This document shows positions 1 through 61,120 of a DNA stretch of 64,000 bases, one piece after another (within the stretch, counting starts at the first letter, position 1; each line of letters begins with the position of its first letter). The notes beneath the pieces were generated by a model. It saw only the letters and a program-made list of their open reading frames with translations. It was not told where the DNA came from and did not search any database. Made by a program: the position numbers and the translations under genes. This DNA is from Chiloscyllium plagiosum (taxonomy: Eukaryota), in contig NC_057727.1 of assembly GCF_004010195.1 (NCBI RefSeq), forward strand, positions 38,343,944-38,407,943. The letters are read 5' to 3'.

Positions 1-364
1 GCCTGTAGATAACTCCCAAGAGGGTCTTTTTACCCTTAGAATTTCTCAGCTCTATCCATACTGACTCTACATCACCTGATTCTAGGTCCCCCGCGCAAGG
101 GACTGAATATCATCCCTTACCAAAATGGCCACCCCCCCTGCCCGTCAATCTATCCTTACGATAGCACGTGTAGCCTTGAATATTCATTTCCCAGGCCCTG
201 TCCACTTGAAGCCACGTCTCAGGTATCCCCACAATATTGTATCTGCCAATTTCCAAAAGAGCCTCAAGCCAATCCATCTTATTTTTAATGCTTCGTGCAT
301 TCATATATAGTATTTTTAATTTGTTACTGCCCTCACCCTTCCCATCAACTCCTATTTCACTCAA
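1..364 (-). mobile_element. CR1 LINE fragment, ORF2 endonuclease N-terminus
   Basis: LKILYMNARSIKNK...ETWL...YRKDR..GRGGG are AP-endonuclease motifs. Confidence 0.85.
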
Positions 365-1052: not shown

Positions 1053-4000
1053 CTGTTTGAACAAGACAGGAAATTCATTACCTTGAGATTACTATAAGAT
1101 AAAATAAATACATTTTTTTGCAAGGGTCTGCTATTTTTAATTGGTACACCTAGATGAAGGACCAACGCAGTGGTGCAGACTACTTCTTAGGTTTGAGATA
1201 CTTGGGTGAAAGAAATTTGTTTCTGCAAAATGAACTGGCACAGTGACTGGACCATGCTGATCTGTGCCAGCATGAAGCCTAAGCAGATCACAATTTGCCA
1301 TTCAGGGAGGATGGAAATTGCCAGGCTCTCATACAAAGCAGGCTGACAAATCAGTGGCCAATGGGGGATTACAGCCTTGAACATGCAATTATATAGCACC
1401 CTTTTAAAAATGAAATTAAGAACTTTTTTCAAAATTGGCAGCACAAGACATTCTGTGCTGCACATTATACATTTCATCTTACCTGACCCCTGCCTTAAAA
1501 TGGACTCCTTGCTAGTGGCTGGAGTGCACCCTGAAATTACGCAAATAACCCTTGTCCCAGAAACTCTTCCAGAGTTAAATGTAAGTCCTTGTAGCGGACA
1601 GCACCTCCAATCAATGCACTTCGCCAAAGTCATTAGCAAATGATTGGATTGAGACACAAGAGCAGAATCTCAGATCTTTTCGCTTCCACTCTCTGCAGGA
1701 GTCTCTCAACTGCTGTTCCAGCAGAGATTAGCTATCTTAGCACAGACCACAAGAATCAAATTGCAATGTTTCTCCTTTCTATGACTCCACAGTACAACAG
1801 GCAGTGCATTTTGCTGCTAAGGAATTTATTTATGGAACTTTTACATTCAAATTTAATTAACCATTCCCAAGTGCGGCAAAACGTTAGATAAAAATCTTTT
1901 ACCCTACTAATCTGTTTCAGCCATGTTTTAAATTTCTGCTGTAGCTGAAATGATCTGTTTGAAATTGTACCATTACATAAGATACTCACATAAAAGGATG
2001 TTGTTGTTGGAGTAGTTGTTCTTGTCTGAACTACTGTAATATCAATCACTACAGTTCCTGTACTTGGCTTTATCCTCTTAATATTGTCATCAATGATGTT
2101 GACAATGAGATGAAACTGCTGCTGAATGTCTGTTTTACCCTCATAGCCAAATGGAGTTTTGATTATTAGTTTCGGAGCAAATGAACCACGGACAGGGTCA
2201 AAACCAAAATGATTGTTCACATTTCCTGTAAATAAAATGCATTTGAATGAAGTGACACACTGCAAGGTGAATTGACAGTTTATCATCATTTTCATCATAA
2301 TGGAATGACAGTAAAAGCAACTAAGGGCAGGATTTTCCCCATGAGTTTCAGGACCACACCATCAGGCTCAAATGGGGATCAGAAGACCACACGATGTGGG
2401 GAACACTCACTTGAGATTTTTCCCAGATTCACCAGACGATACACTTGCTGCCCAATTAGGGAACAAGAATAACTAGACTGCATTATAGTACCAAGTACAG
2501 TTCTGGGCACCACACCTTAGACAAGATATAACACAGAAGTCTTGAAAGTGTTATACCTGTAGTTCAAATCTGCAAGAATGTTAATGGGGCTCCAAAAAAT
2601 GTTATAGGTAAGGTTTACAGAACCCAAGTTCTATATTTCCTGGAGTTTAGAAGGTTAAAACTTGTTTGTTTTATAATTTTGAAAGGGGAGATATAGAGAA
2701 ATGTTTTCTGCTGATGCAGGAGCCTAGAAGGAGGGGACATAACTTTAAAATCTTCAGGAAAGGCTTAAGGAAATACTCATAAGGTTCTAGAAGTGTGGAA
2801 CTCTCACAGTTAGTTTATGGAACTACAAAAAGCAGTAGAAGCTAGATGTATTTATAATTGTAAGTTGGTTATCAATAGATAAACAAGGCAAAAAATGGAT
2901 ATGAATCCAGGGTGATTGATTTACAAATCAGTCATCATCACTCTGAATTGGGGTCATGATTTGGAAGTGCCAGTGTTGGATTGGAGTGTACAAAGTTAAA
3001 AATCACACAACACCAGGTTACAGTCTAACAGGTTTATTTGGAAGCACTACCTTTCGGAGCACTGCTCCTTCATCAGGTGGTTGTGGAGTATAAGATTGTA
3101 GGACACAGAATTTATAGCTAAAGTTTACAGTGTGATGTAACTGAAATTATATATTGAAAAAGCCCTGGATTGTTTATTAAATCTCTCATCTTTTAGAAAG
3201 GGCATGTTGGCCCATTGTTAAATGGCACCTGTTGTTAAAGTTCACTTGAGAATGTAACTTTAAGAAAGTTCTGCGATTTACATATGAAAGAACTAAAATC
3301 AACATGCCCTTTCTAAAAGATGAGAGACTTAANNNNNNNNNNNNNNNNNNNNNNNNNNNNNNNNNNNNNNNNNNNNNNNNNNNNNNNNNNNNNNNNNNNN
3401 NNNNNNNNNNNNNNNNNNNNNNNNNNNNNNNNNNNNNNNNNNNNNNNNNNNNNNNNNNNNNNNNNNNNNNNNNNNNNNNNNNNNNNNNNNNNNNNNNNNN
3501 NNNNNNNNNNNNNNNNNNNNNNNNNNNNNNNNNNNNNNNNNNNNNNNNNNNNNNNNNNNNNNNNNNNNNNNNNNNNNNNNNNNNNNNNNNNNNNNNNNNN
3601 NNNNNNNNNNNNNNNNNNNNNNNNNNNNNNNNNNNNNNNNNNNNNNNNNNNNNNNNNNNNNNNNNNNNNNNNNNNNNNNNNNNNNNNNNNNNNNNNNNNN
3701 NNNNNNNNNNNNNNNNNNNNNNNNNNNNNNNNNNNNNNNNNNNNNNNNNNNNNNNNNNNNNNNNNNNNNNNNNNNNNNNNNNNNNNNNNNNNNNNNNNNN
3801 NNNNNNNNNNNNNNNNNNNNNNNNNNNNNNNNCATCACACTGTAAACTTCTGCTATAAACTCTGTCCTACAATCTTATACTCCACCATGACCTGATGAAA
3901 TAGCAGCTCTCCGAAAGCTAATGCTTCCAAATAAACCTGTTGGGACTATAACCTGGTGTTGTGTGATTTCTAATGTAATTGGGGAATAGCTTGGTGGGGC

Positions 4001-10000: not shown

Positions 10001-13000
10001 TCTGAGGATAAAGCAGGGAAATTAATAAAGAGGCTCAACAGAAACAGAAGCTGACAGGTCATAGGGGTCACAGGGACAGGAACACCAAAGGAAACATGAC
10101 GATGGGGACAGCATTCTGCATCTCAGGTCACTCATTAAGGTACAAAATTGGATCATTGCCATTTCAGATTGAAAGTTGACTGGGTGATAACTGCACAAAA
10201 TAACTGCACCATGTGGGTGGAATAAGTTACTCTTTTTCTCTCTTTGGGGTGGAGTGAAACTCTCAGGATTTGAGGCAGATAGAAGATCGAAAATCATGAT
10301 TGTAGTGATTCAATAATGTCATTCATCTGCTTCAATTTACACTTCATTGGCAGGTCTTTCTATGTCCAAGAATGCACATGAAGAATTACGGCTTCAAGAA
10401 TGATGATCATGACATTGTACTCACCAATTGCTTCCTTATCTTGTCAGTTAAACAAATGTAATCAATCAGTTGTACTTAAAAGCATCAACTGAGCGTCTCA
10501 TATCAGAAACAAAGGAAACATAGAAATTAAAAGTAGGAGTAAGCCATTCAGCCTTAAAGCCTGTTCTGCCATTCATTACACTCACGGCTGATCCTCTGTC
10601 TCAATGCCATATTCTCACTTTTTCCTCTTACCCCTCAATGTCTTTAAAATCTAGAAATGTATCTATCTTTTTCTTGAATACATTCAGAGATTTGGCTTCC
10701 ACAGCCTTCTGTGACAGAGAATTCCTCAGATGCATTCCCCTCTGGGTGAAGCAATTTTTCCTCATCTCAGTTCTAAATGGTCTATCCTATATTGTGAGAC
10801 TGTGTCTCCTGGTTCTAAATTCCCCAATAGAAAGGATACCTGTCCTGGAGCTATCCAGTCCTGTTAGAATTCTATATGTTTCTATGAGATTCCTTCTCAT
10901 CCTTCTAAATGCTAGTGAATACAGGCCCAGTCAAACAATCTTTTCCTCCTAGAACAACCTTGCCATCCTTGATATCAACCTAGTGATCCTCCACTGCACT
11001 CCCTCTGAGACAAGTATATTGCTTCTTAGGTAGGGAGACCAAAGCCACATGCAATATTCTAGTTGTGATCTCACCAAGGCCCTATATAACTGAAGTAAGA
11101 CAATCTCCATCTGAACTCAAATCCTCTTGCAATGAAAGCCAATATATCATTTGCCTACCTAATTGCTTTCTGCACCTGCCTGTCTACTTCTCTTGACTGG
11201 TGTACAAGGACACCAATATAAACACTTCCCAATATGTCACTATTTAAATAATATACTTCCTTTCTGTTTTTCACACTGAAGAGTACAACTTCACATTTCG
11301 CCATGCCATACTGTATCTGCCATGTATTTGTCCACTTATTCAACTAACCTAAATGAGCCTTCAAGACTCATTGTATCCTCTTCACAACTCACACTCCCAC
11401 CCAGTTTTGGGTTGTCAGCTAACTTGGACATATTCTATTTGGTTCCCTTACCTAGGTCATTTATATTTCATGAATAACTGGAGCCCAAACAGTGACATTG
11501 CAGTAATAGTCACTGACTGCCACTTGGGAAATGATTCATTTATTGCCACTCCCACTTTCCTGCCTGTCAACTAATTCCTGATCCATGCCAATGCATTATC
11601 CTTATCACATGTGCTTCAACTTTGCCTACTAACCTCTTATATAGAACCTATCAATCTGAATATCCACATACACCACATCCTTTGGACCTCCCTTATCTAT
11701 TTGACTTGTTACTACCTCAAAATACTTCAGTAGATTTGTTAAACATGATGTGCCTTTTATAAACCCAAGCTGGCTTTGCGTAACCCCATTGATGCTTTTC
11801 AAATATTTTGTTATCATATTTTTTACAATAGACTGTATCATTTTCCCCACCATTAATGTTTGGCGAACTAGTCTGTAATTTTCTGTTTATAGTCTCTCTC
11901 CCTTTTTAAATAGTTGGATTACATTTGTCGCTCTCCTATCTGTAGGAACTGTTTCAGAGTCTATACAGTTTTGGAAGATGATCATCAATGCATTCAATAT
12001 TTCCAGGACCACATCCATTTTATTCTGAGATACATATTACCAAACCCTAGAGATTTGTCAGTCCTTAATCCCATTAACTTGCCCAGCATCATTTTTCTAC
12101 TAATACTAATTTCCTTCAATTCCACTCTCTCACTGGACCTTTGGTTCCCTAATATTTCTGTGAGATTATTTTGTGTCCTGTTTGTGAAGACCAATGAATC
12201 TACGTGTTAATTCTTCTGACATATCTTTGTTCGCCATTACAATTTCTCTAGCTTCTGACTGTAATGCATAATAAGGTCTGGAAGACAATACTTTGCTGTT
12301 GCCACATTCACATACAGAACTATAAGGATGTAAGGATCGAAAAATGTGGTGCTGGAAAAGCACAGCAAGTCAGGCAGCATCTGAGGAACAAGAGAGTCGA
12401 CGTTTCGGATATAAGTCCTTCATCAGTTCGGATATAAGTCCTTCATCAGTCAAAAGCACATGAAACTGATGAAGGACTTATATCCGAAACGTCGACTCTC
12501 TTGTTCCTCAGATGCTGCCTGACTTGCTGTGCTTTTCCAGCGCCACACTTTTCAACTCTGATCTACAGCATCTGCAGTCCTCACCTTCTCCTATAAGGAT
12601 ATAAGGGTATGGCTTGTGTACAGTGCACGGGTGTATGTGCAATGTCGTTTCCCTTTAAATGGCCTCACATCAATAGATCCTACAGCCCCTCCCTTGTATC
12701 ACTTACCCTGCTCAGTCCAACTTTGGTTGCAGCCATTTACTTTCCCGTTGTGTATTTTTGATTCAGTATGATAGAAGGTAATGTTCAATGCTTTTCAATT
12801 AATGGCTTGCAGCCTTCGATTCTGTGTCAGTGATACTCAAAGCTCCAAATCAACCTTCTTGTAGCCCCTCACTTAAACCCTAAAGGCTTTACACCTCTCC
12901 ATAGGTAGGGACCCAACCTGTTTACATCAGCATGCAACTATTCACCTGCCCTCCCCCAGGCCCTTGAACACTAGGTGACATACCAAGTGAGGTCATACAC

Positions 13001-16000
13001 TGTCCCCAACTTGAAGCCAAAGTTCTCCTGAACATGGATGAAGCCCCTGCATCATAAACCCCTTCCCATCCATGCTTTACTTAATACCCCTTTGCAGATA
13101 CTGTTGCCCTTTTTACAGTTGTCATCCTACCTTCCCCCAGCCTGTATGCCCCAGTTCCGAAGCATAGCTTGCTAAGATGCTTTCCAAAGTAGTAGCCCCT
13201 TTCTCACCCCCACGCTGGTGGATCAAGTAAGGTGCCATGATGGTCATCAGAGGTTGCCAAATGCCAGGTACCAATGTCGGTGGATAAAGGATGTATGTGA
13301 CTGATGCCTGTGGATCATGCATCCAATATTTCCAGGACCACATCCTTTTTATTCTGAGATACATACTATCAAACCTGAGGGATTTGTCAGTTGCTGTTTG
13401 GAGTGGAGCCGCATGGAGCTTTGACACAGCCAGCGGTGAGCTGAAGTCACCAGCTTCATGATTTCCATGTCAATAATTCTTGATGTTGAGCTTGTTTGGT
13501 GCATTTGGTTAAATAGAAAGCTGAATATTAATAAGGAGGGTTAGGATGTTAACGAGAGGTTTAGCAAGCTATTGTTTCCTCCTTAATTGAAAGCTTGCCG
13601 CTGCCCAGTGAGAAACTTTGTAAAAAGCATAAATGGTGCAAAGAGATACTCACGACATCCAGATGTGCCTTGACAGACTTCTCATTCCCATTCTGTCACA
13701 CATCTCGGCATAGCCATGTGACTTCGACCCCTAGGAATCCAGCACTGAGTAACTCACCTCCTGACTCTCCAAAGCCTGTCCATAATCTACAAAGGCAGAA
13801 GGCACAAGTGCGATGGAATACTCCCCACTTGTCTGGATGGGTGCAGCTCCAACAACTCTCAAGAAGTTTGACACCATCCAGAACAAAAGAAAACCACAAG
13901 CATCTACTATTTCCACCACTGACACTCAGTAGCAGCAGTGTATACTCTCTACAAGATGCACAGCAGAATTTCACCAAAGATCCTTAATCAGCACCTACAA
14001 AATCCATAGCATCTACCATCTAGAAAGACAAGGGCAGCAGATACATGGGAACACCACCACCTGCAAGCTCCCCGCGAAGCCACTCACCATCCTGACTTGG
14101 AGATGTAACACCATTCCTTCAATGTTGTTGGTCAAAATCCTAGAATTAGTTTCCTTGGGCGTTGTTGGTCCATCTACAGTACATGGACCATTGTGGTTCA
14201 AGAAAGTAGCTCACCACCACTTCTCAAGGGAACTAGGGTTTAGTAATAAATGCTGACCCAACCAGTGATACTCACAACTCCTGAGTTAATTTTTCAAAAG
14301 GATCTGCAAGCCCTGGCACATTAGGCATTACTTGGTAAAACATTTCAAATGAAAATGGGAAAATTCAGCCAAGTGACTCACATGCCGTTGACTCAAGGAC
14401 ATCAAAGATATAAGGATCCTTCTCAAATATGGGACTAAAGTCATTCACAGGTGTAATTTCTACAAACACCGTAGCAGTTGCTGTTGGAAGCAATTAGAGG
14501 AAGTTATTCCTTTACAAGTGTCATTTTATGGTCTTGCCTGTAATATGCAAAAACACAACACAACTCTGAACATAATTTTCTTTGGTTCATTTCATGCTGT
14601 ACTCAGCTCAAAGATCATTACTGCTTGACACAATCAATGCCTGGCATTTTGAATCACTGAATGGCAATGATTCCACTCTAAGCCCTAAATATGTACATGT
14701 TACCATAACAGTCACTTTTCAGGCTAATGGTAAGTCCATGACCTGAAGATTACATTTTAGTCATTATATAGCAATGAAACTGCAAACACCAATGGTACAA
14801 GAAAAGTGAAGGAGCTTTTCTTCCCAAACATTGCATAGGAGAAATTCCAACTTTTTTAATAGCTTGACCAATTTTATAAAGTGAATCACATTGTGAGGAA
14901 TTTTATGGGGAATTGTTGAAAGCATAAATCATTTATTTCCATAAAATTACACACTTCCCTGTAACAGATTATATTTGTTTCTTACAGCCAAATTTTCAAA
15001 GTTGTATTTTTAGACCATCAAGAGGAGACCACAGCACAATAACCAAAGTAGTTCTTTGTAATTCACATAATGAAATAATATGGTCTGCTTTGTCATTTTT
15101 GTTTACTAAACCGCAAGCATAGTGTTAAATAAAATCTGCAAAATTTAGCAGTAATGAGTGTGAGTGTGCTATTAACAAGAGACATAATTGCATGGTACAA
15201 GAAATTGCTTGAAACTGCTCACTGTGTTGGCTTTGTAGGAGGCTTGGCAAACAGCAGTAAAAAAAAACGACTGAAGGAGGCCAGCAACATCTTAATAAAA
15301 TGGGCAGATTGGCTGTAGATGCAAGTAATGTGGAGGAGTGTGGGAGGAAAATCAAGGAATGGTAGTTTATAATTAATGGAAAGAAGGGTGTGGATAAACA
15401 TAGGGTTCAAAGATGTAATTCATTGACAGTGGGAGTGCAGGTGGGTAACGCCATAAAAAGGTCAAAAGTACTTGGCTTTCAGAAATAGAGGAAGAAAGTA
15501 AAAGAACAATCAGTAGTTTAAGTAAAATAGCTTATGCCATGATAGTCAATCGTTTGCTGTAGTAGCTCTTTTCAAATGGTTTAGTAATCATGGATACACC
15601 TTCCCCATCTACATGATGACACCATATAATTGAAGGCAGACTAGATGATTTGCATCAGGAGGATAGACAACTTGAAATTGAGAATGGGAGGCTCCTTCAA
15701 GATATTAGGAGAAAGTGAGGGCTGCAGATGCTGGAGATCAGAGCTGAAAAATTTGTTGCTGGAAAAGCGCAGCAAGTCAGGCAGCATCCAAGGAGCAGGA
15801 GAATCGACGTTTTAGGCATAAGCCTGAAGAAGGGCTTATGCCCGAAACGTCGATTCTCTTGCTCCTTGGATGCTGCCTGACCTACTGCAGTTTTCCAGCA
15901 ACACATTTATCAGCTCCTTCAAGATACTGAAGAGGAAAAATCAAGCCTGCAAACTATAGAGGAATGAAAACGATTGCCAGAATTTCACAAAGATGGAATA

Positions 16001-19000: not shown

Positions 19001-22000
19001 TCCATCAATTGGTGTAATTTTTATACAATTACATGCTATTCTCAAAAACATACTCACTCCAGTAATGTACAAGAAACTCCAGATACAATATACTCAATCA
19101 ATAACTCCAACCTGTATGACGTTATCTGCGCCAGTCTTTTGCTTAAATATCATTCCAGGCCCAAGGGGACCACTTTGAGGAACATACGTTAATGCATCAC
19201 GTGGAGTGTCAGAGTCTTTACAGATTAAAACAGCGACTACTGTATCACGAAGGAGTAGTTCAGGAAGTGTAGTTCTAAAAGCAAATTAAAAAGCAGTCAC
19301 TGGGTACATTTCAACGGGCATCTTTCACACTGGTATGATTTTTCTAATCCACCTTCTTCATTACTATTACTGGTACTATTACTACTACTAACATTATTTC
19401 AAATAATGGTTCAGCCTGAACAATGCAGTAGTCCAAAAATATTTAGAAGTTCAAATTAGCTGATATTTTGCATAATATATAGCAACTATTTGTTGAATTC
19501 ACAACTATTCACATGTTTGCTAAGATTGCATTCTGTTGCAGAACATTGTGAGGGAAAATTTTGATAAGGCCTGAAAATGTGTTGGTCACTATACATGTCT
19601 AATGGAAACCTTTGTGTTCCAATGATTTGGAGGAGTCGGTGTCAGACTGGGGTGTACAAAAGTTAAAAATCACGCAACACCAGGTTATAATCCAACAGGT
19701 TTAATTGGAAGCACTAGCTTTCAAGGTGCTGCCCAATCAAAACAACAGCAGTTTTAAAAGGGAGAAGAACAGACAAAGGAAGCACATGGTGAGGCCATTG
19801 CAGGAGAGAGAGAGAGAGAACCTGTACAGTTACTACCTTTGATGTTTGAAGTCATTTATCGCTGGACATCGGAGTGCATCTGGGAAAATTATCAAATAGT
19901 GAAATTCACAACTGATCTTGGAGGAATTGTTGGGTGAAGTTCACAGCACAGGATCAGATAAGTTAATCATTGTTTTAAGTGTGGCCTACAGAGAATCAAC
20001 AGTAGTGAGTAGAGTGGGTTCTTTCTTGATTAAATGTTTTTAGAGATATATCTTTTGATTAAACTTAAAATATAAGCCATAACTATTAATTTAACCTGGG
20101 GCAGTGTTTGTAGAGGAATAAGACGGTGTCATCTTCTGGGTCTGTAGACTGTGAAGGAGCAAAAATGGCCTTTAATAGAGTGATATGTACTTCTTGTCAG
20201 ATGTGGGAGTTTAAAGAGAGTTTAAGGGTTACTGCAGATTATATCTGCCATAAATGCTGCTGGCTGCGAATCTTATCAGATCAAATGGATCGGTTGGAGA
20301 AACAGTCAGAAGCAATGTGAGGTTTGCAACGGCAACAGTACATGATGGATAAAAGGTATAGAAAGGGGGGAAAGTCTCAGATATAGTCACATAGATGGGT
20401 TAACTCTCGGAAAGGTAAGAGAGGTAGGCAGCTAGTGCAGGAGTCTTTTGTGGATATACCCATTTCAAACAGGTATGCTGTTTTGGAAAATGTAGGGGGT
20501 GATGGATTCTCAGGGGAACATAGTACGAACAGCCAAGTTTCTGGTATTGAGACTGGCTCTAATGCAATGAGGGGTACATCGGGTTCCAAGAGATCAATTG
20601 TGTTAGGGGATTCTCTAGTCTGAGGTACAGACAGACGTTCCTGTGGCCAGCAGAGAAAAAGCAGAATGGTGTGTTGCTTCCCTGGTGCCAGGATCAAGGA
20701 TGTCTCAGAGAGGGTGCAGAATGTTCTCACGGGGGAGAGGGGCCAGCAAGAGGTCATTGTCCATATTGGAACCAATGACATAGGAAGGGAAAAGGTTGAG
20801 ATTCTGAAGGGATATTACAGAGAGTTATGTAGAANNNNNNNNNNNNNNNNNNNNNNNNNNNNNNNNNNNNNNNNNNNNNNNNNNNNNNNNNNNNNNNNNN
20901 NNNNNNNNNNNNNNNNNNNNNNNNNNNNNNNNNNNNNNNNNNNNNNNNNNNNNNNNNNNNNNNNNNNNNNNNNNNNNNNNNNNNNNNNNNNNNNNNNNNN
21001 NNNNNNNNNNNNNNNNNNNNNNNNNNNNNNNNNNNNNNNNNNNNNNNNNNNNNNNNNNNNNNNNNNNNNNNNNNNNNNNNNNNNNNNNNNNNNNNNNNNN
21101 NNNNNNNNNNNNNNNNNNNNNNNNNNNNNNNNNNNNNNNNNNNNNNNNNNNNNNNNNNNNNNNNNNNNNNNNNNNNNNNNNNNNNNNNNNNNNNNNNNNN
21201 NNNNNNNNNNNNNNNNNNNNNNNNNNNNNNNNNNNNNNNNNNNNNNNNNNNNNNNNNNNNNNNNNNNNNNNNNNNNNGGATAGCATTACAGCTGTGCTGA
21301 GGGAGGATATTCCTGGAAATACATCCAGGGAAGTTATTTGGGTGGAACTGAGAAATAAGAAAGGGATGATCACCTTATTGGGATTGTATTATAGACCCCC
21401 TAATAGTCAGAGGGAAATTGAGAAACAAACTTGTTAGGAGATCTCAGCTATCTGTAAGAATAATAGGGTGGTTATGGTCGAGGATTTTAACTTTCCAAAC
21501 ATAGACTGGGACTGCCATAGTGTTAAGGGTCTAGATAGAGAGGAATTTGTTAAGTGTGTACAAGACAATTTTCTGATTCAGTATGTGGATGTACCTACTC
21601 TTGACCTACTCTTGGGAAATAAGGCAGGGCAGGTGACTGAGATGTCAGTGGGGGAGCACTTTGGGGCCAGCGACCACAATTCAATTAGATTTAAAATAAT
21701 TATGGAAAAGGATAGACCAGATGTAAAAGTTGAAGTTCTAAATTGGAGAAAGGCCAATTTGGACGGTATTAGGCAAGCACTTTCAAAAGCTGATTGTGGC
21801 CAGATGTTCACAGGTAAAGGGACGGCTGGAAAATGGGAATCCTTCAGAAATGAGATAACGAGAATCCAGACAAAGTATATTCCTGTTAGGGTGAAAGGAA
21901 AGGCTGCTAGGTAGAGGGAATGTTGGATGACTAAAGAAATTGAGGGTTTGGTTAAGAAACAAAGAAAGCATCTGTAAGGTATAGACAGGATAGATCGCGT

Positions 22001-25000
22001 GAACTTAGAAGAGTATAAAGGCAGTAGGAGTATACTTAAGAGGGAGATCAGGAGGGCAAAAAGGGGGCATGAGATAGTTTTGGCAAATAGAATTAAGGAG
22101 AATTCAAAGAGTTTTTACAAATACATTAAGGACAAAAGAGTAACTAGGGAGAGAATAGGGCCCCTCAAAGAACAGCAAGGCAGCCTTTGTGTGGAGCCGC
22201 AGAAAATGGGGGAGATACTAAATGAGTATTTTGCATCAGTATTTACTGTGGAAAAGGATATTGAAGATACAGACTGTAGGGAAATAGATGGTGACATCTT
22301 GAAAAATGTCCAGATTACAGAGGAGGAAGTGCTGGATGTCTTGAAAAGCATAAAAGTGGATAAATCCCCAGGACCTGATCAGGTGTACCCTATAACCCTG
22401 TGGGAAGCTAGAGAAGTGATTGCTGGACATCTTGCTGAAATATTTGTATCATCGATAGTCACAGGTGAGATGCTGGAAGACTGGAGGTTGGCTAACGTGG
22501 TGCCACTGTTTAAGAACGGTGGTAAGGACAAGTCGGGAAACTATAGACCAGTGAGCCTGATGTCAATGGTGGGCAAGTCGATGGAGGGAATCCTGAGGGA
22601 CAGGATGTACATGTATTTGGAAAGACAAGGACTGATTAGGGATAGTCAACATGGCTTTGTGCGTGGGAAATCATGTCTCACAAACTTGATTGAGTTTTTT
22701 GAGGAACTAACAACAAGAGGATTGATGAGGGCAGAGCAGTAACTGTGATCTATATGGACTTCAGTAAGGCGTTCNNNNNNNNNNNNNNNNNNNNNNNNNN
22801 NNNNNNNNNNNNNNNNNNNNNNNNNNNNNNNNNNNNNNNNNNNNNNNNNNNNNNNNNNNNNNNNNNNNNNNNNNNNNNNNNNNNNNNNNNNNNNNNNNNN
22901 NNNNNNNNNNNNNNNNNNNNNNNNNNNNNNNNNNNNNNNNNNNNNNNNNNNNNNNNNNNNNNNNNNNNNNNNNNNNNNNNNNNNNNNNNNNNNNNNNNNN
23001 NNNNNNNNNNNNNNNNNNNNNNNNNNNNNNNNNNNNNNNNNNNNNNNNNTGGAGTCGCAGGTAGATAGGATAGTGAAGAAGGTGTTTGGTATGCTTTCAT
23101 TTATTGGTCAAAGTATTGAGTACAGGAGTTGGGAGCTCATGTTGCAGCTGTACAGGACATTGGTTAGGCCACTGTTGGAATATTGTGTGCAATTCTGGTC
23201 TCCTTCCTATCGGAAAGATGTTGTGAAATGTGATAGGGTTCAGAAAAGATTTACAAGGATGTTGCCAGGGTTGGAGGATTTGAGCTATGGGGAGAGGCTG
23301 AACAGGCTGTTGCTGTTTTCCCTGGAGCATCAGAGGCTGAGGGGTGACCTTACAGAGGTTTACAAAATTATGAGGGGCATGGATAGGGTAAATACACAAA
23401 GCCTTTTCCCTGGGCTTGGGGAGTCCAGAACTTAGGGCATAGGTTTAGGGTGAGAGAGGAAAGATATAAAAGAGACCTAAGGGGCAACTTTTTCACACAG
23501 AGAGTGGTACATGTATGGAATGAGCTGCCAGAGGAAGTGGTGGAGGCTGGTACAATTGCAACATTTAAGAGGCATTTGGATGGGTATATGAATAGGAAGG
23601 GTTTGGAGGGATATGGGCCGTGTGCTGGCAGGTGGAACTTGACTGGTTTGGGATGTCTGGTCGGCGTGGACGGGTTGGACCGAAGGGTCTGTTTCCATGC
23701 TGTACATCTCTATGACTCTATGACCCTAAGATGGTTGAAGGAGCCAAAAGCTAGTGCTTCCAAATAAACCTGTTGGACTATAACCTGATGTGGTATGATT
23801 TTCAACTTTGTGTTCCAGTACAGGCAGCAAGCAAATGTTGTGCTCCCTACCTATTTATGTGATGCAGACTACAGACAGCACCATGCATGCTACTGAGAGA
23901 TTGCAGTTCAGAATAGGAAAATTAAGAGTTAAAGCTAATTTGTGCTTCTTAAAACAAGTCTGCATCTCTTAAAGGGGATGGGCTGCATTTTGGCTGGAAC
24001 CCATGCTGAATTTCACTACAGAAGTGAATTGAATCTACATAACAGAGTGAAACTCCAGGCTTTTTGGATGCAGCCCTGGAGGTCATGGTGCAGAGGTGGA
24101 CAGAAGAAGAGACGACCACTAAAAACAGTGTGGGAGGAAATCCTTGAGACAAATACTAGGGAGGCAATAATAGCAGTAATAATAGCAATAATAGCAGTCA
24201 GATGTTCAGGTTAGTTTGGCTCCAAGGGCTTGGATGTAATGCCAAAAGATGTGGAATGATTTCACATGAATATCAAGGTCTTCAAATGATATATCCCATC
24301 AAGTATATTACTAATCTCTATATTACTAATCTCAGAAACTGCTTTCTACATCACATCACTATAAAGTACCTACCAACACCATGTATCAATCACAATTCAT
24401 ACTTACGACACATAGTATTATCTCCCTGCTTGCAGTTTCATGTTCACAGTTCACAATGTGTAAATACCAGCGACTCAATTAACAGCCATGTAACCGAAAT
24501 ATATTGCGCTACATTTACTGCCACATTTCCCTCTTGCAGGACAAGAGGTAATAGGAACTAGTCAGCAAGACATATGGGAAAAGTCACTGGATCTGAGTGG
24601 CTTGCTGCTAGGCCAGAGAAAGGTAGCACAGGAGCCAGGAAAAGAAAAGTTGCGAATGGGTTTCACGGTAGAGGACTCAAGTGAGGAGATCAATGGGTGA
24701 CATTCAGAAATGGGCATGCAAAATGAAAAGTTCAGTTTGACGGAGGGTCTAACAAAAAACCTGCCCTCACTGCCAATAAGGAATCAAGCACCAACTTGAT
24801 ATAAGACTTCATGCAGAACTTAAAGTCAGTTCTTTCTAGTGTAAAACTGACGTCCAACTGGATGGAAAAATTTGTGAGCACAACTATGCTGCAGCATCAG
24901 ATGGCTTTTTTTTGTAAATATATTTATTAGCAAATGTATTTATTAGCAAAAAAAGTTTATTTTGATTTTACAAAAAAATGAAGTTATTGAAAATATAATA

Positions 25001-43000: not shown

Positions 43001-46000
43001 CAAGTGGGCAGAATTAAAATTCACACTGAGGTGATTCTAGAGATAAGAAGAAGGCAAGGGATAAGTCAAGCGAATAATTTGTAGTGAATCACATACTGTA
43101 CCTGAAGAGGCTGGAATATTATCCCTGAGCCTCAAACTATGCCAACCATCATGCTGCACAGTCTCCTATCAAATCCAGGAGAGGTGGTGACTGTCAATGA
43201 GCTCTGTCCCACAGTAAACCATGTCCTTCAATGCACTATTGTCTCCCAACCTTATATATTGAGCTGCTCCCCTTTTACAATTATTGTTCCCTCTGCATCC
43301 CAGCATGCTGTTTCCAACCCCACACTTGACCTGCACAACTTCTCTCCACTGCAGTGGCTGATGCTAAATTCCAATTCCCAGGATTTACCATGGGCCACAC
43401 CCCTGATCGACTTGGATGGACAGCCCCAGTTGAGGAGTGGCTGGGTCCTGACTGATATCTGTGTAGTTTTGACTGAAATAACAAATCCCCATACTGGTTG
43501 CACTGGACCTGCAGACTGTGTCCTATTCCCTGGAGTGCAGTAGTACAGACTCCCTGGGGCTAAATGTTCCAAGTGGCTAATTGACAATATCAGACAAGCC
43601 CGTATTCTGAGATCAGACATTGCCTTTGTTGCACGAGTAGCTCTTGATTGAAGGCTGTTTTGCATGACATGACTAAGGATTACTCCTTTTTGACTTTGAA
43701 ACACGGCCACATGGCTGATTCGCCTTCAGTGTGTTTATTGTGTAAACACCAATATCCTATAATCAAATTTACAGATGATACTGAAATATGTGACAAAGTA
43801 AGCTGCAATAAAGGAACAGACATTTATAATGGATATAGATCAATTAGGTGAATGGACCAAAATTTGGCAGATACAGTTTAACGTGGATTAGTGTGAGGTT
43901 AACCATTTTGATCAGAATAATAAAAAAGGTAATCATCATTTAAATAGAAAGAAACTTCAAAATGTTTTGGTACAAGTGGATCTGGGTGTCCTTGCCCATG
44001 AGTCACAGAAAGCTAGTATGCAGGTACAACAGGCAATAAGGAGGACAAATGGGAATTTTGGCATTCATTGCAAAGGGAATAGACATAAAAATAGGTTAGT
44101 ATACAAAGCACTCATAAGATTGTATCTATATCAATGACATGCTTCTAGCATGTGTTGGGAATCCTGATTATGTCCAAAACAGCAATTCTCCTGCTCCTCG
44201 GATGCTGCCTGACCTTCTGTGCTTTTCCAGCACCACACCCTCAACTCTAACCTCCAGCATCTGCAGTCCTCACTTTCTCCTCCTGATTCCCATTGTGAGG
44301 CAATCTAAAACGAGAGGTTATAATTTTTGGCTAAAGGAAGGTAAATTTAAACAGAGATTAGGATGAATCACTTCTCTCAAAGAGTTGTGAATCTGTGGAA
44401 TTCACTACTCAAAGGTGCAGTGGATTCCAAGACATTGAATAAAATTAAGGAAGAGAGACAGATTTTTAATTAGTTATGGGTTAAAGGACTATGGGGAGCA
44501 GGCACGCAGGCAAGTGGAGTGGAGGTCAAGATGAGGTCAACCATAAGTGCATTAAATGGCGGAGTAGGTTCAAGGGATTGAATTGCATTATACTATTCCT
44601 ATATCTTATGTTCTTCTGTAAGGCTTCAGCACATGCTAGAAGCATGACATTGATGTAGAACTGCGCCATACAGCAACATGTCTATCCATTTGACCGATCA
44701 CTGCTGACAGTTAAGACAATCTAGGAGAAAGTGAGGACTGCATATGCTGGAGATCAGAGCTTAAAAATGTGTTGCTGAAAAAGCGCAGCAGGTCAGGCAG
44801 CATCAAAGGAGAAGGAGAATCGACGTTTTGGGCATAAGCCCTTCTTCAGGAATGAAAACGTCGATTCTCCTTCTCCTTTGATGCTGCCTGACCTGCTGCG
44901 CTTTTCCAGCAACACATTTTTAAGCTAAGACAATCTGCTTGGTTTTGAGTCTGCACTCAATCGTTCAGCAAGATAGAAGGACTGTGAGCCTTTAAGCTCT
45001 GCTGGAGGGTACAAATGCAGAAGAGGTAAAGGCAAGGCAGAGTTACTACAAACATCCCAGCGGGCACAAAGTGAGTGGCCATGAAGCGAGCAAGCGAGGA
45101 GTGCTGAGATGTATCCTGGTCTAATTCATGAAATGGGCAGTTGTCTCCTGGTAGTTGAGAGTGTGGTGCTGGAAAAGCATAGCAGGTCAGACAGCATCTG
45201 AGAAGCAACAGAATTGAATTTTTCGGCATAAGCCCTTCATCAGGAACGAGGCTTGTGGGCTGAGGGGCTGAGAGATAAATGGAAGGGGAGTGGGATTGGA
45301 GGGAAGGTCGCTGAGAATGCAATAGGTAGATGAAGGTGAGGGAGAAGGTGATAGGTCAGAGAGGAAATAGAGTAGATAGCTGGGTAAAGTGATGGACAGC
45401 TCAGGAAGGTGGTGCTGAGTTGGAGGCTTGGGACTGGGATAGTGGTGGGGGAGGGAAACTGTTGAAATCCACATTGATCCCATGTGGTTGCAGGGTCCCA
45501 ATGCGGAATATGAAGCATTCTTCCTCCAGGCATCGGGTGGTAACGATTTAGCAATGCAGGAGGCCCAGGACCTCTCATTGGGAGGGGGTGTTGAACTGTT
45601 CAGCCACAGGGCGGTGGGGTTGCTTGGTGCGGGTTGCCTCCTAGCAGTAGCATTACAATGAAAGGGTATTTCCCTCCAATATGTGATACTGAAGTAGAAA
45701 GCCGTTAGTGGGTCAGGGATGTGCCATGATGAAGTGGTGAGGCTGGTGCACATCTGATGTCAACTTCTATTGAGAGGGCTGTTGCAGGTATTCACTGCCT
45801 GTGTGGAGCATGCCCTGAGATGGTTGGAACTGCTGTCCCAGATGGAAGCTCAGAGGAGCAAGCAGTGAGCTGCATTGTCACTTCTGATTTCTATCCAGCG
45901 CCTGGGAGAATAGCAAAGTTTATATCAGAGGTGAGATTAGGCACTAATGGCATGCCAATGTTTATTTTTGCTGCTCACTAGTGCGATTTTCACCTCACCA

Positions 46001-49000
46001 TTCAAAATTTGATTGCAGAAAGGCATTTGGTATGCTTTCCTTTATTGGCCAGAGCATTGAGTATAGGAGTTGGGAGGCCATGTTGCGGCTGTACAGGACA
46101 TTGGTTAGGCCACTTTTGGAATATTGCATGAAATTCTGGTCACCCTCCTATCAAAATGATGTTGTGAAATTTGAAAGTGTTCAGAAAATATTTACAAGGA
46201 TGTGCCAGGGTTGGAGGATTTGAGCAATAAGGAGAGGCTGAATAGGCTGAGGCTGTTTTCCCTGGAACATTGGAACTGAGGGGTGACCTAATAGAGGTTT
46301 AAAAAATCATGACAGGCATGGATAGGATAAACTGACATGGTCTTTTCGCTGGGGTGGGGTAGTCCAGAACTAGAGGGCATAGGTTAGGGTAAGAGGGAAA
46401 TATATAAATGGGATGTATGGGACAACATTTTCACGCAGAGGATGGTGCATGTATGGAATGAGCTGCCAGAGGAAGTAGTGGAGGCTGGTACAATTACAGC
46501 ATTTAAAAGACATCTGGATGGGTGTATGAATAGGAAGGGATTAGAGAGATATGGGCCAAGTGCTGGTAAATGGGACTATATTAGATTAGGATTCTGCTCG
46601 GCATAGACGAGTTGGACCGAGTTGTACATCGCTATGACTGTATGACTCTAATTGCATTTTTCTCAATAATAAAAATCTAATTTTTCCAATTTCATCATAT
46701 TTTCCCAACTGTCTCATCGTTTCCCATATCATTCAAATCTGGGAAAATGTGACTCTATGATGTTTTAACAAAATTATTATTTGTGTTCATTGTCTGCAAT
46801 CCAGTGAGGGTTTAGACAAAGCAGAACCCAACATGCCATTACTTACTGGAACCTCCTCCAGCACCACAACTCTCTGACATAAAAAATATAAATTACTAGA
46901 GAAATTCTATAGGTCTGGCTCTATCTGTGGAGAGAAAGCAGAGTTAATATTTAGGGTTCAGTGATCCTTAGTCAGAACTGATTGTAGCTAGGAAAAGGTT
47001 GGATATATGCTGAAACTGGGGTGGGGAGAGAGGGCAGGAGTAACTACTAGGTGGAGATGGAGCCCAGAGAGAGAGAATAGCAGTTGGGCAGAAAAAGCAC
47101 TGAGTAATGGTCAGCCTGCTTCTTGTGCATGCACAATTATATTGCTTTATCATTGATTGGAATGGCTTGTCCACAGAGCTCCTGTTCTGTATCTTTGCTG
47201 CTCTTAATCCCTCAGCCTATTTTAAGATGCTCCCTAAAGGATTCTTCATGAACCAGCTCAGTGGTTAACATTGCTGCCTCACAGCGCCAGGAACAAATGT
47301 TTGATTGCAGTCTTGTAGAACAGTCTGTGTGGAGTTTGCACATTCTCCCTGTGACTGCATGGATTTCCTCCAGATACTCCGGTTTCCTCGCACAGTCCAA
47401 AAACATGCAGGTTACATGGATTGGTCATGCTAAATTGTCCATAGTGTCCAGGGATGTGCAGGCTAGGTGGATTGCAGGGTTACAGAATCTGGGTTGGATA
47501 CTCTTTAGAGGGTCACTGTGGACTTGATGGGCTGACTGGCCTGCTTCCACACCGTAGGGATTCTATGATATGAAGCAAGTTTTTGGCCAGATGCTCTAAT
47601 TTCATCTTAAGTGCCTAGGTATTACATTGTTCTTTACAGTGCTCCTATGAAGTACCTTGGAACATTTTCTTACATAAAAGGGACCACATAAATTAAAGTT
47701 GCTATTGAGACCTTGATAATTCATCTGCTCCAGTATAAATTTAACATAAAACTTAAAAACATTTGGTGCTAAAGAGAACTTGAAATTTTACTCCCTGATA
47801 AAGAGAAGCACCCCAGCAGCAAAAACCAGGCACACAAAACTTCTTGTGATTTGATGAGATAAACAAATTAAACACTGCCTGGCTGCAGAGTGGACCAGAA
47901 CGCAATCCTCTCAGCCAGGAAGAAAGATGATTCAAAGCTTATATGCAATGAGTTTTACATAATAGTCATTAGCTGCAAGACAAAGCCACCCAAAAGCTCA
48001 ATGTTCATTAGTATTTGAATGTTACAAGGAGTATTCAATTGTGTATAATTATGAAACATGGGATTTGCTTTGGCCATGTATTCAGCATGTTCTTCTGAGA
48101 TTGTGTGATATGAACATTATTAAGCTGGCATGGGTTAAACTTCATCTTACCTCTAACCAGAGCTGTAATGCGTTTGGGAAATCTGGATACAAAAAAGTTG
48201 GAGAATTTTCAATGCTCAGCACAGCCATTCTTCATTTTAACCAGAACAAAAGAAGAAACATCCTCCAGCTTAAAATGTAACTAAATAGACTATTTGCTAA
48301 CTTGAGACTTATCATCAGAACAATGACCAGTTGAAATTTCAACATTGAAAGCTCATGGGAATTTCCAAAATGTTTAACCTCAGTCATTCTTAACCAAACA
48401 TGTTTCTCCTTATTCCAGTTGAAGGGATAATGGGGCCAATTTTGACACAGCAGTCCTGCCACCAGCCAGCCTCGCCAGTTAACTTGAAAATTTAGGTGCA
48501 AACTGCAGACTGTGTCCACATGATTAATTTCAATGGTAGGCAGCACTTGAACTTCTGAAACATGCTATTGTTCAATCATTTTGCTTTCCAATAGTACAGT
48601 CCAGTAAAATACACCACAATATGCAATGCAGTTCATAAATTAATTGGACACTTACATGCACGACAATACTGGAGTATTGTCATTGACGTTGGTGATGAAC
48701 ACTTTCACAGTTCCAACAATGAACAAAGCATTTGTGTCCTCCACCTTCACTGATAACAAATAGCTTCAAATGATAATGACTTGCATTAGTTATACAGAAA
48801 TGTGGTTAATAATCGATGTAGAGTAATTGGCATTTGAGAATAGTATTGAAATACATATTAATGTTTATTTCTACTTGTAGCGTTCTCTCTCTCTCGAGAG
48901 GTTGTCCCAATCACTCAGCATGTCTATTTTTTTTGTAAATTCTTGCTCCTATCTGCTCAGCACGTTGAATATGGATGTACAATTGTATTCCTTTGTCCAC

Positions 49001-49027
49001 GTTCTTGAGATACAAGGAATAATGCTG

Positions 49028-49097
<70 letters not shown>

Positions 49098-52000
49098 CAG
49101 CATTATTCCTTGTATCTCAAGAACGTGGACAAAGGAATACAATTGTACATCCATATTCAACGTGCTGAGCAGATAGGAGCAAGAATTTACAAAAAAAATA
49201 GACATGCTGAGTGATTGGGACAACCTACACCAGATATGATTTGGAGATGCGGTGTTGGACTGAGGTGTACAAAGTTAAAAATCACACAACACCAGGTTAT
49301 AGTCCAAAAGGTTTAATTGGAAGCACTAGCTTTCAGAGCGGCGTTCAGGACACCACCTGATGAAGGAGCGGCGCTCCGAAAGCTAGTGCTTCCAATTAAA
49401 CCTGTTGGACAATAACCTGATGTTGTATGATTTTTAACTTTGTACACCAGATAAGAATCAATGTTGAGAAGTGTAATGTACTTTTTGCTCCAAGAATTAC
49501 AACAATATCTTCTTAATGGCAGTAGATTAGGAACTGTAAAGGAGCCAACAGATTTGTGTATCTCAACAGATAATCCCAGAAAAATATCTTACAATATTAA
49601 AAGTCATCAAAAGTGTAATAAACCTGTCTTTGGAGTGGGGACCTGGTGAGGGTGCATCATGAAAATCAGCTTCCTGAAGTTCATCTCAGAATGCTGGTGC
49701 CTCTGGAACAACAAGTGCTGTCAGGGAGCAGAGAATGGGAAACCCTCTCACCAGGGTGATAAATTCCTTAAGGAAATTGTTAGTCTATTCAATGGATATT
49801 CGAGTTCATAGTTTCTTTTACCAAATCCAATAGTCTAGTGCATAGCTGTCAGGCTTACCACAGGGTCAAAAAAGGTTTATAGAGTCATAGAATCGTCAAG
49901 TCATAAGTTTTCCAAAATACACTAGTCCCACTTGCCTCTAATCCTCTAAACCTTTCCTATTCATGTACCTGTTCAAAAGTTTTTAAAAATGTTTTAACTG
50001 TAACTGCATCTACCACTTCCTCTGGCAGTTCATTCCACATACAAACCACCATCTGTGTGGAAAAGTTGCCCCTCAGGTCCCTTTAACATCTTTCTCTTCT
50101 CACCCTAAAAAATGACCTCTAGAATTGAACTCCCCTACCCTCGGAAAAATAAACCTTTGCTATTCACTTTATCTGTGCCCCTCATGATGTTATAAGGCTC
50201 TATAAGGTCATCCCTCAAATTCCTACAATCCAATGAAAAAAGGTTTCAGCCTATCCATCCTCTCCTTATACCTCAAACCCTCCAGTCCAGGCAACATCCT
50301 TGTAAATCTTTTCTAAATCGTCTCCAAGTTAATAATACAAATGATTTTGATGGGCCAAATGACTCCAGACAGATGCCTACTTTAGTCCCTGTTTCTGGGA
50401 GGATACTGGCATGTCCCAATGTAGCTACCACCTGCCTTTGCTGCTGACAGCAGACAGTCAGTTCCTGCCTCCTGTAGGAGCTTGGCGCCACTCACTGAGT
50501 ACCAAATTTACCTCCTGACAGATTTGAACATTTAAATTTTAAAAATAACATTGCAAGAGTGCCACAGTTGAGGCACTAGCTTATGACCTGGAGTTCACCC
50601 AGGTCTTTGGTTCCCAAACACACTATGAAAATGTGACCCATAAAATGTTGGCCTTTATTTCTTAGCATGCAGCATTAAATAAAGAGAAACGTCCTGTCGT
50701 ATCAGTCCTATGATATTCCCCAAGTATGAAGTATTATAGCAAGGAAGCCAACTATTTTATAACCTGTTGACAAATTTTTTAAATATTTCCTTGATACTTT
50801 GCTTTATTTCCAGCAAAGCACTATCTGTCAACAAAATTAACCAGACTTTTGTGGGAAAGTATTCAGGCAAACAAGGTTTACAGTTTACCATTATTCAAAC
50901 AACATAAGCTAACTATCATGTCCACACAGAGCATTATACTGTAGCTGACAAGGCCTTCAACATTCATCTAGACATTACTAATCAAGTAATGCATTCTTTT
51001 CTGCATGTCCTCCGGCAGATTGCAAAGATTGCCTTCACTTCTTGTCTATATTTTCTCCCACAACTACTCAACATGGTTATTCTCTATCTCATAGAGGCAT
51101 TTCTCTGTTTTCTCACCCCAAATATAGGAGAGAGAAGCAATTCGCAACCATCGAGTACTCTAGTATAATGTCAGTACAAGCCTTCCAAATTTTGTTTTGA
51201 GATCTACAGCTTCCAAGCTACTCTAGACGCTATGTTCCAGGTGAAATCATGCACTGGAGTTCCTTTCTGATGAAAAATTATATTTGAAACATAACACATT
51301 GGGCAAGGTTTTGGCTTTGGAATCAGGACTGCAATTTGAAACCAACTGGGAGATCCTTGCCTACACAAAATATATCTCCCACCATCCTCTGGATTTATCT
51401 CCTCATGTCACTAAAAATCTTGCCCATTATTTCACTACATAGAAACTGATTAATCTGCTGAGTATTTTCTGTATTCCTTTCTTCTTGTTTTAGATTTATA
51501 ACATTTACAACATTTTTGATTTTGCTCCCCTTCACTATAAACCATTATATATTAAGTTGGGTAGAATAGAACATCAGAAATTTGCCCTTTACACTCAGTT
51601 TTCAATTTCACTTCATTAAAATTGAACTGTTATTAATTTTTGCCCTTGTTCAGCTTTATGGAAGCAAAATAAACTTGATTCAAATTGTTGACATTCTTCA
51701 TTTTAGACTGAACTACACCAAATGATCTTGTGAGCAGGTTAGAAACAGAGATGTCATTGATTTAAAGTTAAATAGAAAGCAGGCTAAAACTTGAATCAGT
51801 TTCACAGCTATTAATTTCAATTCTTGAATAAATGACAATAGAGAAATTAGAATGGAAACGACTCTAGCCTATGCACTAAGTGTGTGGGTGCAACCCTTTG
51901 TCTTTGTGACTGAGCTCACTCCACTTCTTCTAAGTATCTCTATTAATTTCAGCATGCAATATCTCCGTCACATTACTCCATGAAACCATGAATTTAAATA

Positions 52001-60574: not shown

Positions 60575-61120
60575 TTAGGAACAGAGGAACAGGAATATTC
60601 CTTTCAGCGCCTCAAGCCTGCTCCAATATTCAGTGAGGTAATGGCTGATATGTGACCTAACCCCACATACCTGTCTTAAGCCAATATCCCTTTTCTTAAC
60701 AAAATCTGACCTATCTCAGATTTAAAATTAACAACCAAACTAGTCTCCATTGCCATTTGTGGAATAGACAAGAAGCGCTGGAATCCAAGGTAGACAAGCA
60801 GGAGACTGGACGAACACAGCAAGCCAGGCAGCATCAGGAGGTGCATTTTGTGGAAGAGAGTTCCAAATATCTACCACCTCTTGTTATAGGAGTGCTTCCT
60901 ACCATCTCTCTTTAACAGTCTGGCCCTAATTCTCAGACTATGTCCCTGAGTTCAAGAATCCCCAACCAGTGGAAATAGTTTATCTTCATCTACCCTGTCT
61001 TTTCTTGTTAATATCTTGACGACATTGATCAGATCATCCCTTAACCTTTTAAGTTTTAGAGAGAACAGGCCTAATTTGTGTAATCTCTCCACATAGCTTA
61101 ACACTGAAGTCCAAGTGTCA
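60575..61120 (-). mobile_element. CR1 3' fragment containing an ~80-bp insert (60765-60846)
   Basis: LSYVERLHKLGLFSLKLKRLRDDLI; insert flanked by tttgtggaa duplication and resembling Penelope tails (cacagcaagccaggcagcatc). Confidence 0.75.

Follow-up and report, generated by a model that had tools for sequence, protein, structure and literature searches.

Hairpin stubs of Penelope-like elements in Chiloscyllium plagiosum and the replication record that their ends may hold

A stretch of 64,000 nucleotides of the shark Chiloscyllium plagiosum (NCBI RefSeq assembly GCF_004010195.1, contig NC_057727.1, positions 38,343,944 to 38,407,943 of the forward strand; hereafter the window) holds six short insertions made of two inverted arms, flanked by direct repeats and associated in most cases with a hammerhead ribozyme (HHR) core, which raises the question of what such elements are and how they are made. 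A sequence-only reading had suggested that they resemble MITEs (miniature inverted-repeat transposable elements) and are instead retro-products of the pseudo-long terminal repeats (pLTRs) of Penelope-like elements (PLEs), possibly forming a class and recurring system of their own. The present analysis upholds their derivation and discards the separate class: the stubs are real, abundant and PLE-derived, single-arm RNA gives rise to their hairpin anew with every insertion, no hairpin masters being copied, and they constitute a testable record of PLE replication.

Parentage and anatomy of the stubs

Two main stub families, F1 and F2, and an older PLE family, F3, are distinguished here, and positions are counted throughout from the first C of CUGANGA (position 0), with the predicted cut after +27 in F1 and +28 in F2. 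The same ribozyme and tail that make up the stubs terminate copies with an open reading frame (ORF) for reverse transcriptase (RT) and endonuclease (EN), and in tandem copies they stand before the ORF as well; such a partial tandem, with a pLTR ahead of the ORF, was found at 9/30 F2 loci and 7/30 F1 loci, the tail ending at the ATG in F2 and 40 nt ahead of it in F1. An endonuclease-like C-terminus is encoded upstream of the F1 ribozyme at 45243 (- strand) in the window, and likewise upstream of F2 and F3 ribozymes elsewhere in the genome, while a 3.4-kb ORF copy (L175) with a 12-bp target-site duplication (TSD), inverted arm, ORF, ribozyme and tail displays the anatomy of a stub at full size. 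In longer copies RT motifs are followed by a C-x4-C-x2-C linker and then by a YIGET / CCHH-type domain, which we take, from its motifs, to be a GIY-YIG-type endonuclease. Pfam recognised RVT_1 in 3/3 F2 frames (E 6e-6 to 1e-8, one of the three exceeding the curated cut-off) and named no GIY-YIG endonuclease, either in four endonuclease fragments (0 families) or in the longer frames, and a PDB sequence search matched nothing relevant. The linker reads CHRRNCKTC in F1 and CHGRRCKTC in F2, both of the CX2-5CxxC form that, in the available part of PMC8557442, defines the Neptune clade and is common to Nematis too, with the RT-linker-EN order seen in both. Judged from their sequence, F1 and F2 are thus best assigned as the pLTR ends of PLEs with RT and a putative GIY-YIG endonuclease joined by a Neptune-type linker. 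Protein searches of the genome returned 96,860 and 37,158 first-look candidates, which are not copy numbers. The F1 ORF also has a long Thr/Pro/Ser-rich insertion ahead of the RT N-terminal region, absent from F2 (L299:2300-2900).

The window elements and their immediate relatives are as follows.

2956..3976, no single strand: F2 insertion with two arms, namely the tail arm at 2956-3210 (- strand sense, with its HHR core at 3076), joint at about 3210-3222, sense arm 3222-3976 on +
2946-2953 and 3977-3984: 8-bp TSD of that insertion, AATTGGGG
12338..12591, + strand: F1 two-armed stub with right-hand tail; private changes common to both arms (stem II GGAC/AUCC), stem II duplicated centrally
15705..15912, - strand: F1 two-armed stub with left-hand tail; joint +9/-1, the commonest recurrent one; intact core on the + arm at 15824; TSD 14 bp
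19622..19734, - strand: tail arm of an F2 stub that has been split; 12-bp TSD copy at 19610-19621; CUGANGA lost
19735..23730, + strand: long interspersed nuclear element (LINE) in the centre of the F2 stub, not PLE sequence, splitting the stub into two remnants; presumably CR1/L2-type from its translation
23738..23805, + strand: short arm of that split F2 stub; second TSD copy at 23806-23817; CUGANGA absent here too
44723..44925, - strand: F1 two-armed stub with left-hand tail; inner ends -7/+18; AAAA in place of GAAA; TSD 11 bp
45153..45700, - strand: F1 parent copy, 5'-truncated; C-terminus of the putative GIY-YIG-type endonuclease, 3' untranslated region and HHR (core 45243); stops at the internal start site; connects the window's stubs with the autonomous element; upstream limit approximate
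49237..49442, - strand: F2 two-armed stub with left-hand tail; minimal HHR of the + arm intact (core 49357); inner ends +9/-7; TSD 11 bp

The first of these spans a 500-N gap (3333-3832) inside its sense arm, so that its true length is about 560 bp with arms of at least 250 nt, and 19622-23805 is a single stub broken apart by a LINE of about 4 kb, with CUGANGA in neither remnant. All six insertions are flanked by exact direct repeats where the sequence-only reading had placed them (8, 10, 14, 12, 11 and 11 bp), the stub at 12336 alternatively by an imperfect repeat of 15/17 (12321-12337/12592-12608; 2 mismatches), and in each the tail arm runs out to +122..+127 and the inverted arm is about 35-40 nt shorter (near +82..+93), which agrees with the one complete tail and one truncated arm described before. 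The ascription of a hammerhead to all six does not hold throughout, the cores of 12336 and 44723 being mutated and 19622-23805 having no CUGANGA; moreover, stem II of 12336 is not GGGC/GCCC, as had been read, since both arms have GGAC/AUCC. The arms do fold near the ribozyme as proposed, at a place 5' of the core rather than at the cut site.

The frequency of this anatomy was estimated from an unselected sample of 100 stretches of 10 kb taken at round coordinates on large contigs (968,624 non-N bases), which yielded, after removal of duplicates, 219 insertions (131 F1, 40 F2, 48 F3), 86 of them two-armed; 197 insertions, including 81 two-armed ones, were clear of edges and gaps. Extrapolation gives about 0.78 million insertions and about 0.31 million two-armed copies (0.24-0.38 million) in the genome, old copies being undercounted, which bears out the abundance suspected from the window. 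Seemingly one-armed stubs that open with 7-25 nt of an inverted second arm (L074:1361-1445; L225:5946-6058; L227:7133-7232) indicate that two-armed copies are undercounted too. Arms are head-to-head in every window copy and in all 86 paired sample copies, and among 221 F1/F2 arms the outer ends are bimodal, with 93 at +80..99 and 104 at +120..127; 73/81 pairs combine one tail end with one internal end. Direct repeats of at least 8 bp surround 44/81 two-armed copies, against 3/405 mismatched flank pairs, and exact repeats of at least 10 bp mostly measure 11-17 bp in F1 (23/29) and 12-15 bp in F2 (21/29). Short length, long inverted repeats and TSDs are what MITEs of a DNA transposon would display, yet TSD length varies (mode 15 in F1, 12 in F2) rather than being fixed, the termini are asymmetric with a one-sided tail, and the parent encodes RT and a GIY-YIG-type endonuclease and no transposase; this explanation is refuted and deserves practically no credence.

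The ribozyme itself was compared in 63 of 72 ORF-linked copies that could be parsed, only four of them F3, all picked with a core regular expression and with stem pairs counted on an anchor-based alignment. Family majorities agree at 11/12 core positions and at 5/24 flanking positions, in line with the earlier claim that families keep the core and differ around it. Stem I is AUUC/GAUU in F1, CAC/GUG in F2 and AGUU/AACU in F3, and the first four positions of stem II are paired in 90-100% of the copies of F1 and F2, so that both stems differ in bases by family yet pair; downstream of the cut F1 and F2 are unrelated, 410/500 shuffles scoring equally well. An Rfam scan gave no hammerhead match, only sub-threshold matches to microRNA hairpins, and monomer folds of four of the ribozymes were no stabler than shuffles, as minimal motifs would give. 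In the stub at 49237-49442 the motif is predicted to lie inside a hairpin of -114 kcal/mol (z -15.9), where the antisense arm of the stub would pair with it. Once a stub is finished, its ribozyme is therefore predicted to be a passenger, and its conservation would reflect selection on the parents. A further F3-like family with the same hairpin anatomy has a longer stem II and the non-canonical core UUGA(U/C)AAA for CUGANGA (L216:6923-7145; L220:1326-1544).

Some features of the window lie beside these elements. Two stubs had been missed before, and the third family suspected at about 46881-47120 exists as a decayed F3 end, which is one-armed and for which no TSD was found.

44170..44281, + strand: F1 one-armed stub spanning +12..+126; TSD TCCTGATT, 8 bp
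46882..47118, - strand: decayed F3 3' end, one-armed, -143..+94
60765..60846, - strand: F1-related one-armed stub; TSD TTTGTGGAA, 9 bp

Retroelements, F1 copies included, repeatedly sit in stub centres (window 19735-23730; L095:7026-7299; L234:8524-9170). At 24923-37233 two LINE copies, presumably L1-like, are interleaved in opposite orientation (74-82% alike) together with another LINE piece at about 27850-29250 that we take to be CR1-like from its translation. A perfect palindrome with 160-bp arms and a (CT)n/(AG)n centre occupies 48899-49226, reaching the left TSD of the 49237 stub; it is unexplained, an assembly artefact and a recent fold-back being the two candidates.

Central joints and inner ends

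If the stubs were descended from a few hairpin masters, as a distinct mini-element class would be, they should share central joints. Among 73 pairs with abutting arms, 51 joints were clean and 22 were dropped for low score or a gap above 15 nt; 48/51 clean joints are distinct. The two arms of one copy resemble each other (mean 0.90) more than arms of different copies do (median 0.84), and did so in 38/40 testable copies. One joint does recur, namely +9/-1 as at 15705, with 3/51 occurrences in the unselected sample and 23/30 among the best matches to 15705, which is what speaks for masters; it occurs in both orientations relative to the tail, however, and the 23 copies are spread over four subtypes with matching arms (diagnostic sites match in 16, differ in 3 and are unreadable in 4). 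Nearly all joints being distinct, arms being alike within copies and the recurrent joint crossing subtypes, hairpins are rebuilt at each insertion, and descent from masters is largely refuted, retaining hardly any likelihood. The sequence-only reading had left it to a genome-wide comparison whether copies descend from mini-element masters or arise anew, and in the sample they are fresh, with no self-propagating group held together by a shared joint. As the five F1 subtypes all contain short and long copies (by coarse typing), as L175 has the same anatomy, and as both this anatomy and the ribozyme are published, the notion of a separate class or recurring system is likewise given up.

At the recurrent +9/-1 joint, a 7-bp hairpin is made perfect by a G>A change in 22/23 copies with the tail on that side and in 0/2 sampled copies of opposite orientation (window 15810-15835, L001-L030), which suggests a snap-back step while joining. 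Taken as proof of a master at 15705 this change was rejected, given that it recurs in four subtypes. It also belongs, together with palindromes at some joints, to the points in favour of self-priming fold-back, in which a single strand snaps back and copies itself (an idea of PMC3846280, as far as its available text goes). Against that idea, most joints are not symmetric, and the arm without the tail is the one that reaches further 5' in 30 copies and the tail arm in 15, with 2 ties (n=47), each tail arm having in addition 35-40 nt that are absent from the other. Since either arm may reach further, fold-back of one strand cannot account for the stubs, and it is given very little probability.

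The inner ends, on the other hand, are not random. The longer arm stops at -10..+5 in 51/73 pairs (41/51 with clean joints), and stops occur in that interval at a rate of 0.052 per base, compared with 0.002-0.006 from +6 to +50. The median stop lies at -4 for tail arms and -2 for internal arms despite their difference in length of 35-40 nt, and because both kinds of arm stop at one place the stop follows position and not the length of the complementary DNA (cDNA); a fixed cDNA length, with two start sites and one stop, was rejected. Joints in contigs and reads of related species include -1, -2, -3, +4 and -13, loose ends occur there at -4 and -7, and the full-length F1 copy L317 starts exactly at -4. 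A template consisting of the 3' product of hammerhead cleavage was rejected as well, the whole core lying inside the arms and only 4/102 inner ends at +25..+31, the region of the cut site. So was a first exon spliced at -4, there being no common filler by eye and no AG in F1 or F2.

Whether the pile-up reflects the template or the enzyme can be approached through copies that passed it. In ORF-length copies the inverted partner arm extends beyond -15 in 14/16 F2 cases (30 loci) and 7/10 F1 cases (60 loci), the remaining ORF loci having no adjacent partner arm within 1.5 kb; by hand tally, 21/26 ORF-length copies thus have partner arms past -15, compared with 4/73 sampled two-armed copies (Fisher p 4e-13). 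This contrast suggests that the template molecule itself, and not an obstacle encountered by every cDNA, is responsible, although the ORF loci had been selected for long products. A rival account takes the 5' truncation on the 3' pLTR to be of the ordinary kind and lets RT halt strongly at the 5' edge of the hammerhead, owing to an RNA fold or a bound protein; with the same twin priming, it would need no RNA 5' end. It draws on a continuum of sizes (27/197 insertions extend beyond -200), on the coincidence of the stop with helix I in all three families and on the 6/16 upstream pLTRs that reach past -10. A fold should nevertheless halt RT on its 3' side (+20..+31), where, at +25..+31, so few inner ends lie, and a barrier acting on each arm should have stopped the partner arms of long copies too. 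It is accordingly rated as rather improbable.

A proposed run-off model and the RNA evidence

The reading that we prefer, with somewhat better than even confidence, is a run-off model: both nicked target strands prime, at two fixed sites about 35-40 nt apart, and each copy continues until the template gives out at the RNA's 5' end, predicted to lie about 4 nt ahead of the core. A staggered cut of the target, mostly of 11-17 bp, would leave nicked strands that would each prime reverse transcription, one per start site, near the 5' end of the RNA; both cDNAs would run off the template at about -4, the pile-up being read as the start of transcription, and would be joined either by an overlap of 0-3 nt or through a little filler sequence. 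For long and tandem copies the template would have to reach past -4, be it as an HHR-cut and ligated circle, a tandem read-through or a product of strand transfer. Priming on both target strands is highly probable, run-off at a transcription start is moderately probable, and a circle or strand transfer behind the long copies is speculative. With respect to the first step, the available part of PMC11167929 reports that the PLE protein cuts and extends both target strands, starting at two internal sites that delimit the tail.

Reads of a related species, taken from about 2% of a single-cell poly(A) run, bear on the template. On an F2 pLTR-ORF junction 2877 reads were found, of which 382 + 470 = 852 have poly(T) loose ends at about +58-60 (L275:2295-2302), 13-15 nt below an A(A/U)UAAA at +40..+45 and with no genomic A-rich stretch there. 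This poly(A) site lies upstream of both RT start sites, and a polyadenylated F2 RNA would therefore carry start sites at its front end only. F2 copies may also, through this site, be a source of poly(A) signals for host genes. No position at which many molecules begin and no adapter-marked 5' end appeared in these reads (6 listed of 51 loose-end rows), the library not being built for 5' ends and giving no evidence either way.

The poly(A) site also weighs on a SINE-like cycle (after short interspersed nuclear elements), in which stubs keep an internal promoter, short RNAs from about -4 are mobilised in trans and the hairpin is rebuilt each time, an account compatible with the run-off model and differing from it in the loci that supply the RNA. 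It would fit the predominance of short copies, 148/197 insertions not extending beyond -30, the private changes in both arms of 12336, by which a variant copy served as template, the internal promoter described in Penelope (PMC2377424, available text) and the proposal that retrozymes are non-autonomous PLE derivatives (10.64898/2026.07.22.740005, available text). On the other side, short and long copies occur in all five coarsely typed F1 subtypes, and in F2 the poly(A) site at about +59 would end such RNAs short of the start sites; we hold this cycle to be improbable.

Several observations count against the run-off model. The ORF queries by which the long copies were chosen favour processive events; assembly of long palindromes is deficient (N gaps), and 22/73 joints are unclean. 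The upstream pLTR ends of 16 ORF-linked tandem copies lie at -316, -158, -107, -89, -45, -15, -4, +4, +14, +17, +31, +43, +56, +64, +74 and +96, that is, only 2 in -10..+5 and 6 beyond -10, and with such scatter a simple start at -4 does not account for the long copies. As to the poly(A) reads, they belong to another species and to source copies of unspecified context, and most F1 subtypes are without such a poly(A) hexamer. The RNA 5' end at -4 is itself a prediction: an initiator-like YYANWYY, which we presume to be the consensus, fits many F1 and F3 copies at -4 and not F2, and its bases double as hammerhead stem I. In Drosophila virilis, moreover, the start site is about 120 nt upstream of helix I (46 nt plus a 75-nt intron), according to the available parts of PMC2377424 and PMC4209133.

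Known systems and meaning for Penelope-like elements

Comparison with L1 and retroviruses illustrates the logic of the run-off model. In twin priming of L1, two primers at one target site lead to an inversion, and retroviral minus-strand strong-stop DNA is a short cDNA run off the RNA 5' end. The stubs would resemble strong-stop DNA by analogy, with the difference that here both cDNAs copy one RNA segment and neither a transfer RNA primer nor poly(A) priming is involved.

Among PLEs themselves, the inverted arm, one-sided 35-40 nt tail, TSD and minimal HHR are a published anatomy and not a new mobile class (PMC8557442, PMC3846280 and PMC4209133, each in its available part). Insertions of endonuclease-containing (EN+) PLEs have a head-to-head inverted truncated pLTR, a one-sided tail of 30-40 bp and TSDs of 8-10 bp or longer, as well as partial tandems with the pLTR before the ORF and palindromes at joints (Craig et al. 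2021, PMC8557442; Arkhipova et al. 2013, PMC3846280; available text), and the present copies likewise combine a linked RT-EN ORF, a pLTR tandem, an inverted copy with one-sided tail and a minimal HHR. A stub of about 200 bp is here the dominant product and inner ends pile up at -10..+5, neither of which turned up in the text consulted of those accounts. In Poseidon-Ac of Anolis (Frangieh et al. 2024, PMC11167929, available text) two fixed outer ends also delimit the tail, both target strands are extended and the start sites lie in the pLTR-ORF junction, insertion takes place without need for HHR cleavage, and the main text is silent on inverted stubs and inner ends; its ORF begins at stem II, whereas here it begins at the tail end (F2) or 40 nt beyond (F1). 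The minimal type I hammerheads of metazoan PLEs share with the present ones CUGANGA, an extra base before stem II, G10.1-C11.1, a short helix I and a palindromic helix III region (Cervera and De la Pena 2014, PMC4209133). That study had already connected pairs of HHRs, lying on opposite strands at a distance of 100-700 bp, with truncated PLEs, while the available text names no sharks and contains no joint or TSD analysis of the kind given here. Animal non-LTR retrozymes (PMC7229834; 10.64898/2026.07.22.740005; available text) are alike in being short, non-coding, related to PLE pLTRs and equipped with a type I HHR, and differ in being head-to-tail tandem repeats that yield circular RNAs, the stubs being single insertions whose arms stand head-to-head and whose joints are unique; no window copy and none of the 86 paired sample copies showed units repeated head-to-tail, each bearing an HHR. 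In the literature covered, which excluded subscription journals as well as Repbase and Dfam, neither the hairpin stubs of shark PLEs nor the piling-up of their inner ends was the subject of any paper found.

In conclusion, each stub is an independent record of one insertion, and such records number in the hundreds of thousands. With their sharply limited inner ends, their two fixed outer ends and a candidate poly(A) site, they make the PLE cycle a matter of 5'-end mapping and an in vitro assay, and up to about 2% of the genome would be MITE-looking sequence to be annotated as PLE. How pLTRs, tails and inverted arms are made, and what the hammerhead does in PLEs, is an open question in the available parts of PMC11167929 and PMC4209133. 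As a tentative scheme, which we consider unlikely though worth stating, the stubs could be a fossil record of the PLE cycle in which the RNA starts at helix I, is polyadenylated above the RT start sites and can be primed in its front pLTR only; uncut linear RNA would give strong-stop stubs ending at -4, and full-length and tandem copies would arise only once the two HHRs on the same RNA had dimerised, cleaved it and closed it into a circle, or once a strand transfer of the LTR kind had taken place across the -4..+59 repeat. If true, this scheme would give the PLE hammerhead a role in vivo and would explain pLTRs, tails and inverted arms together.

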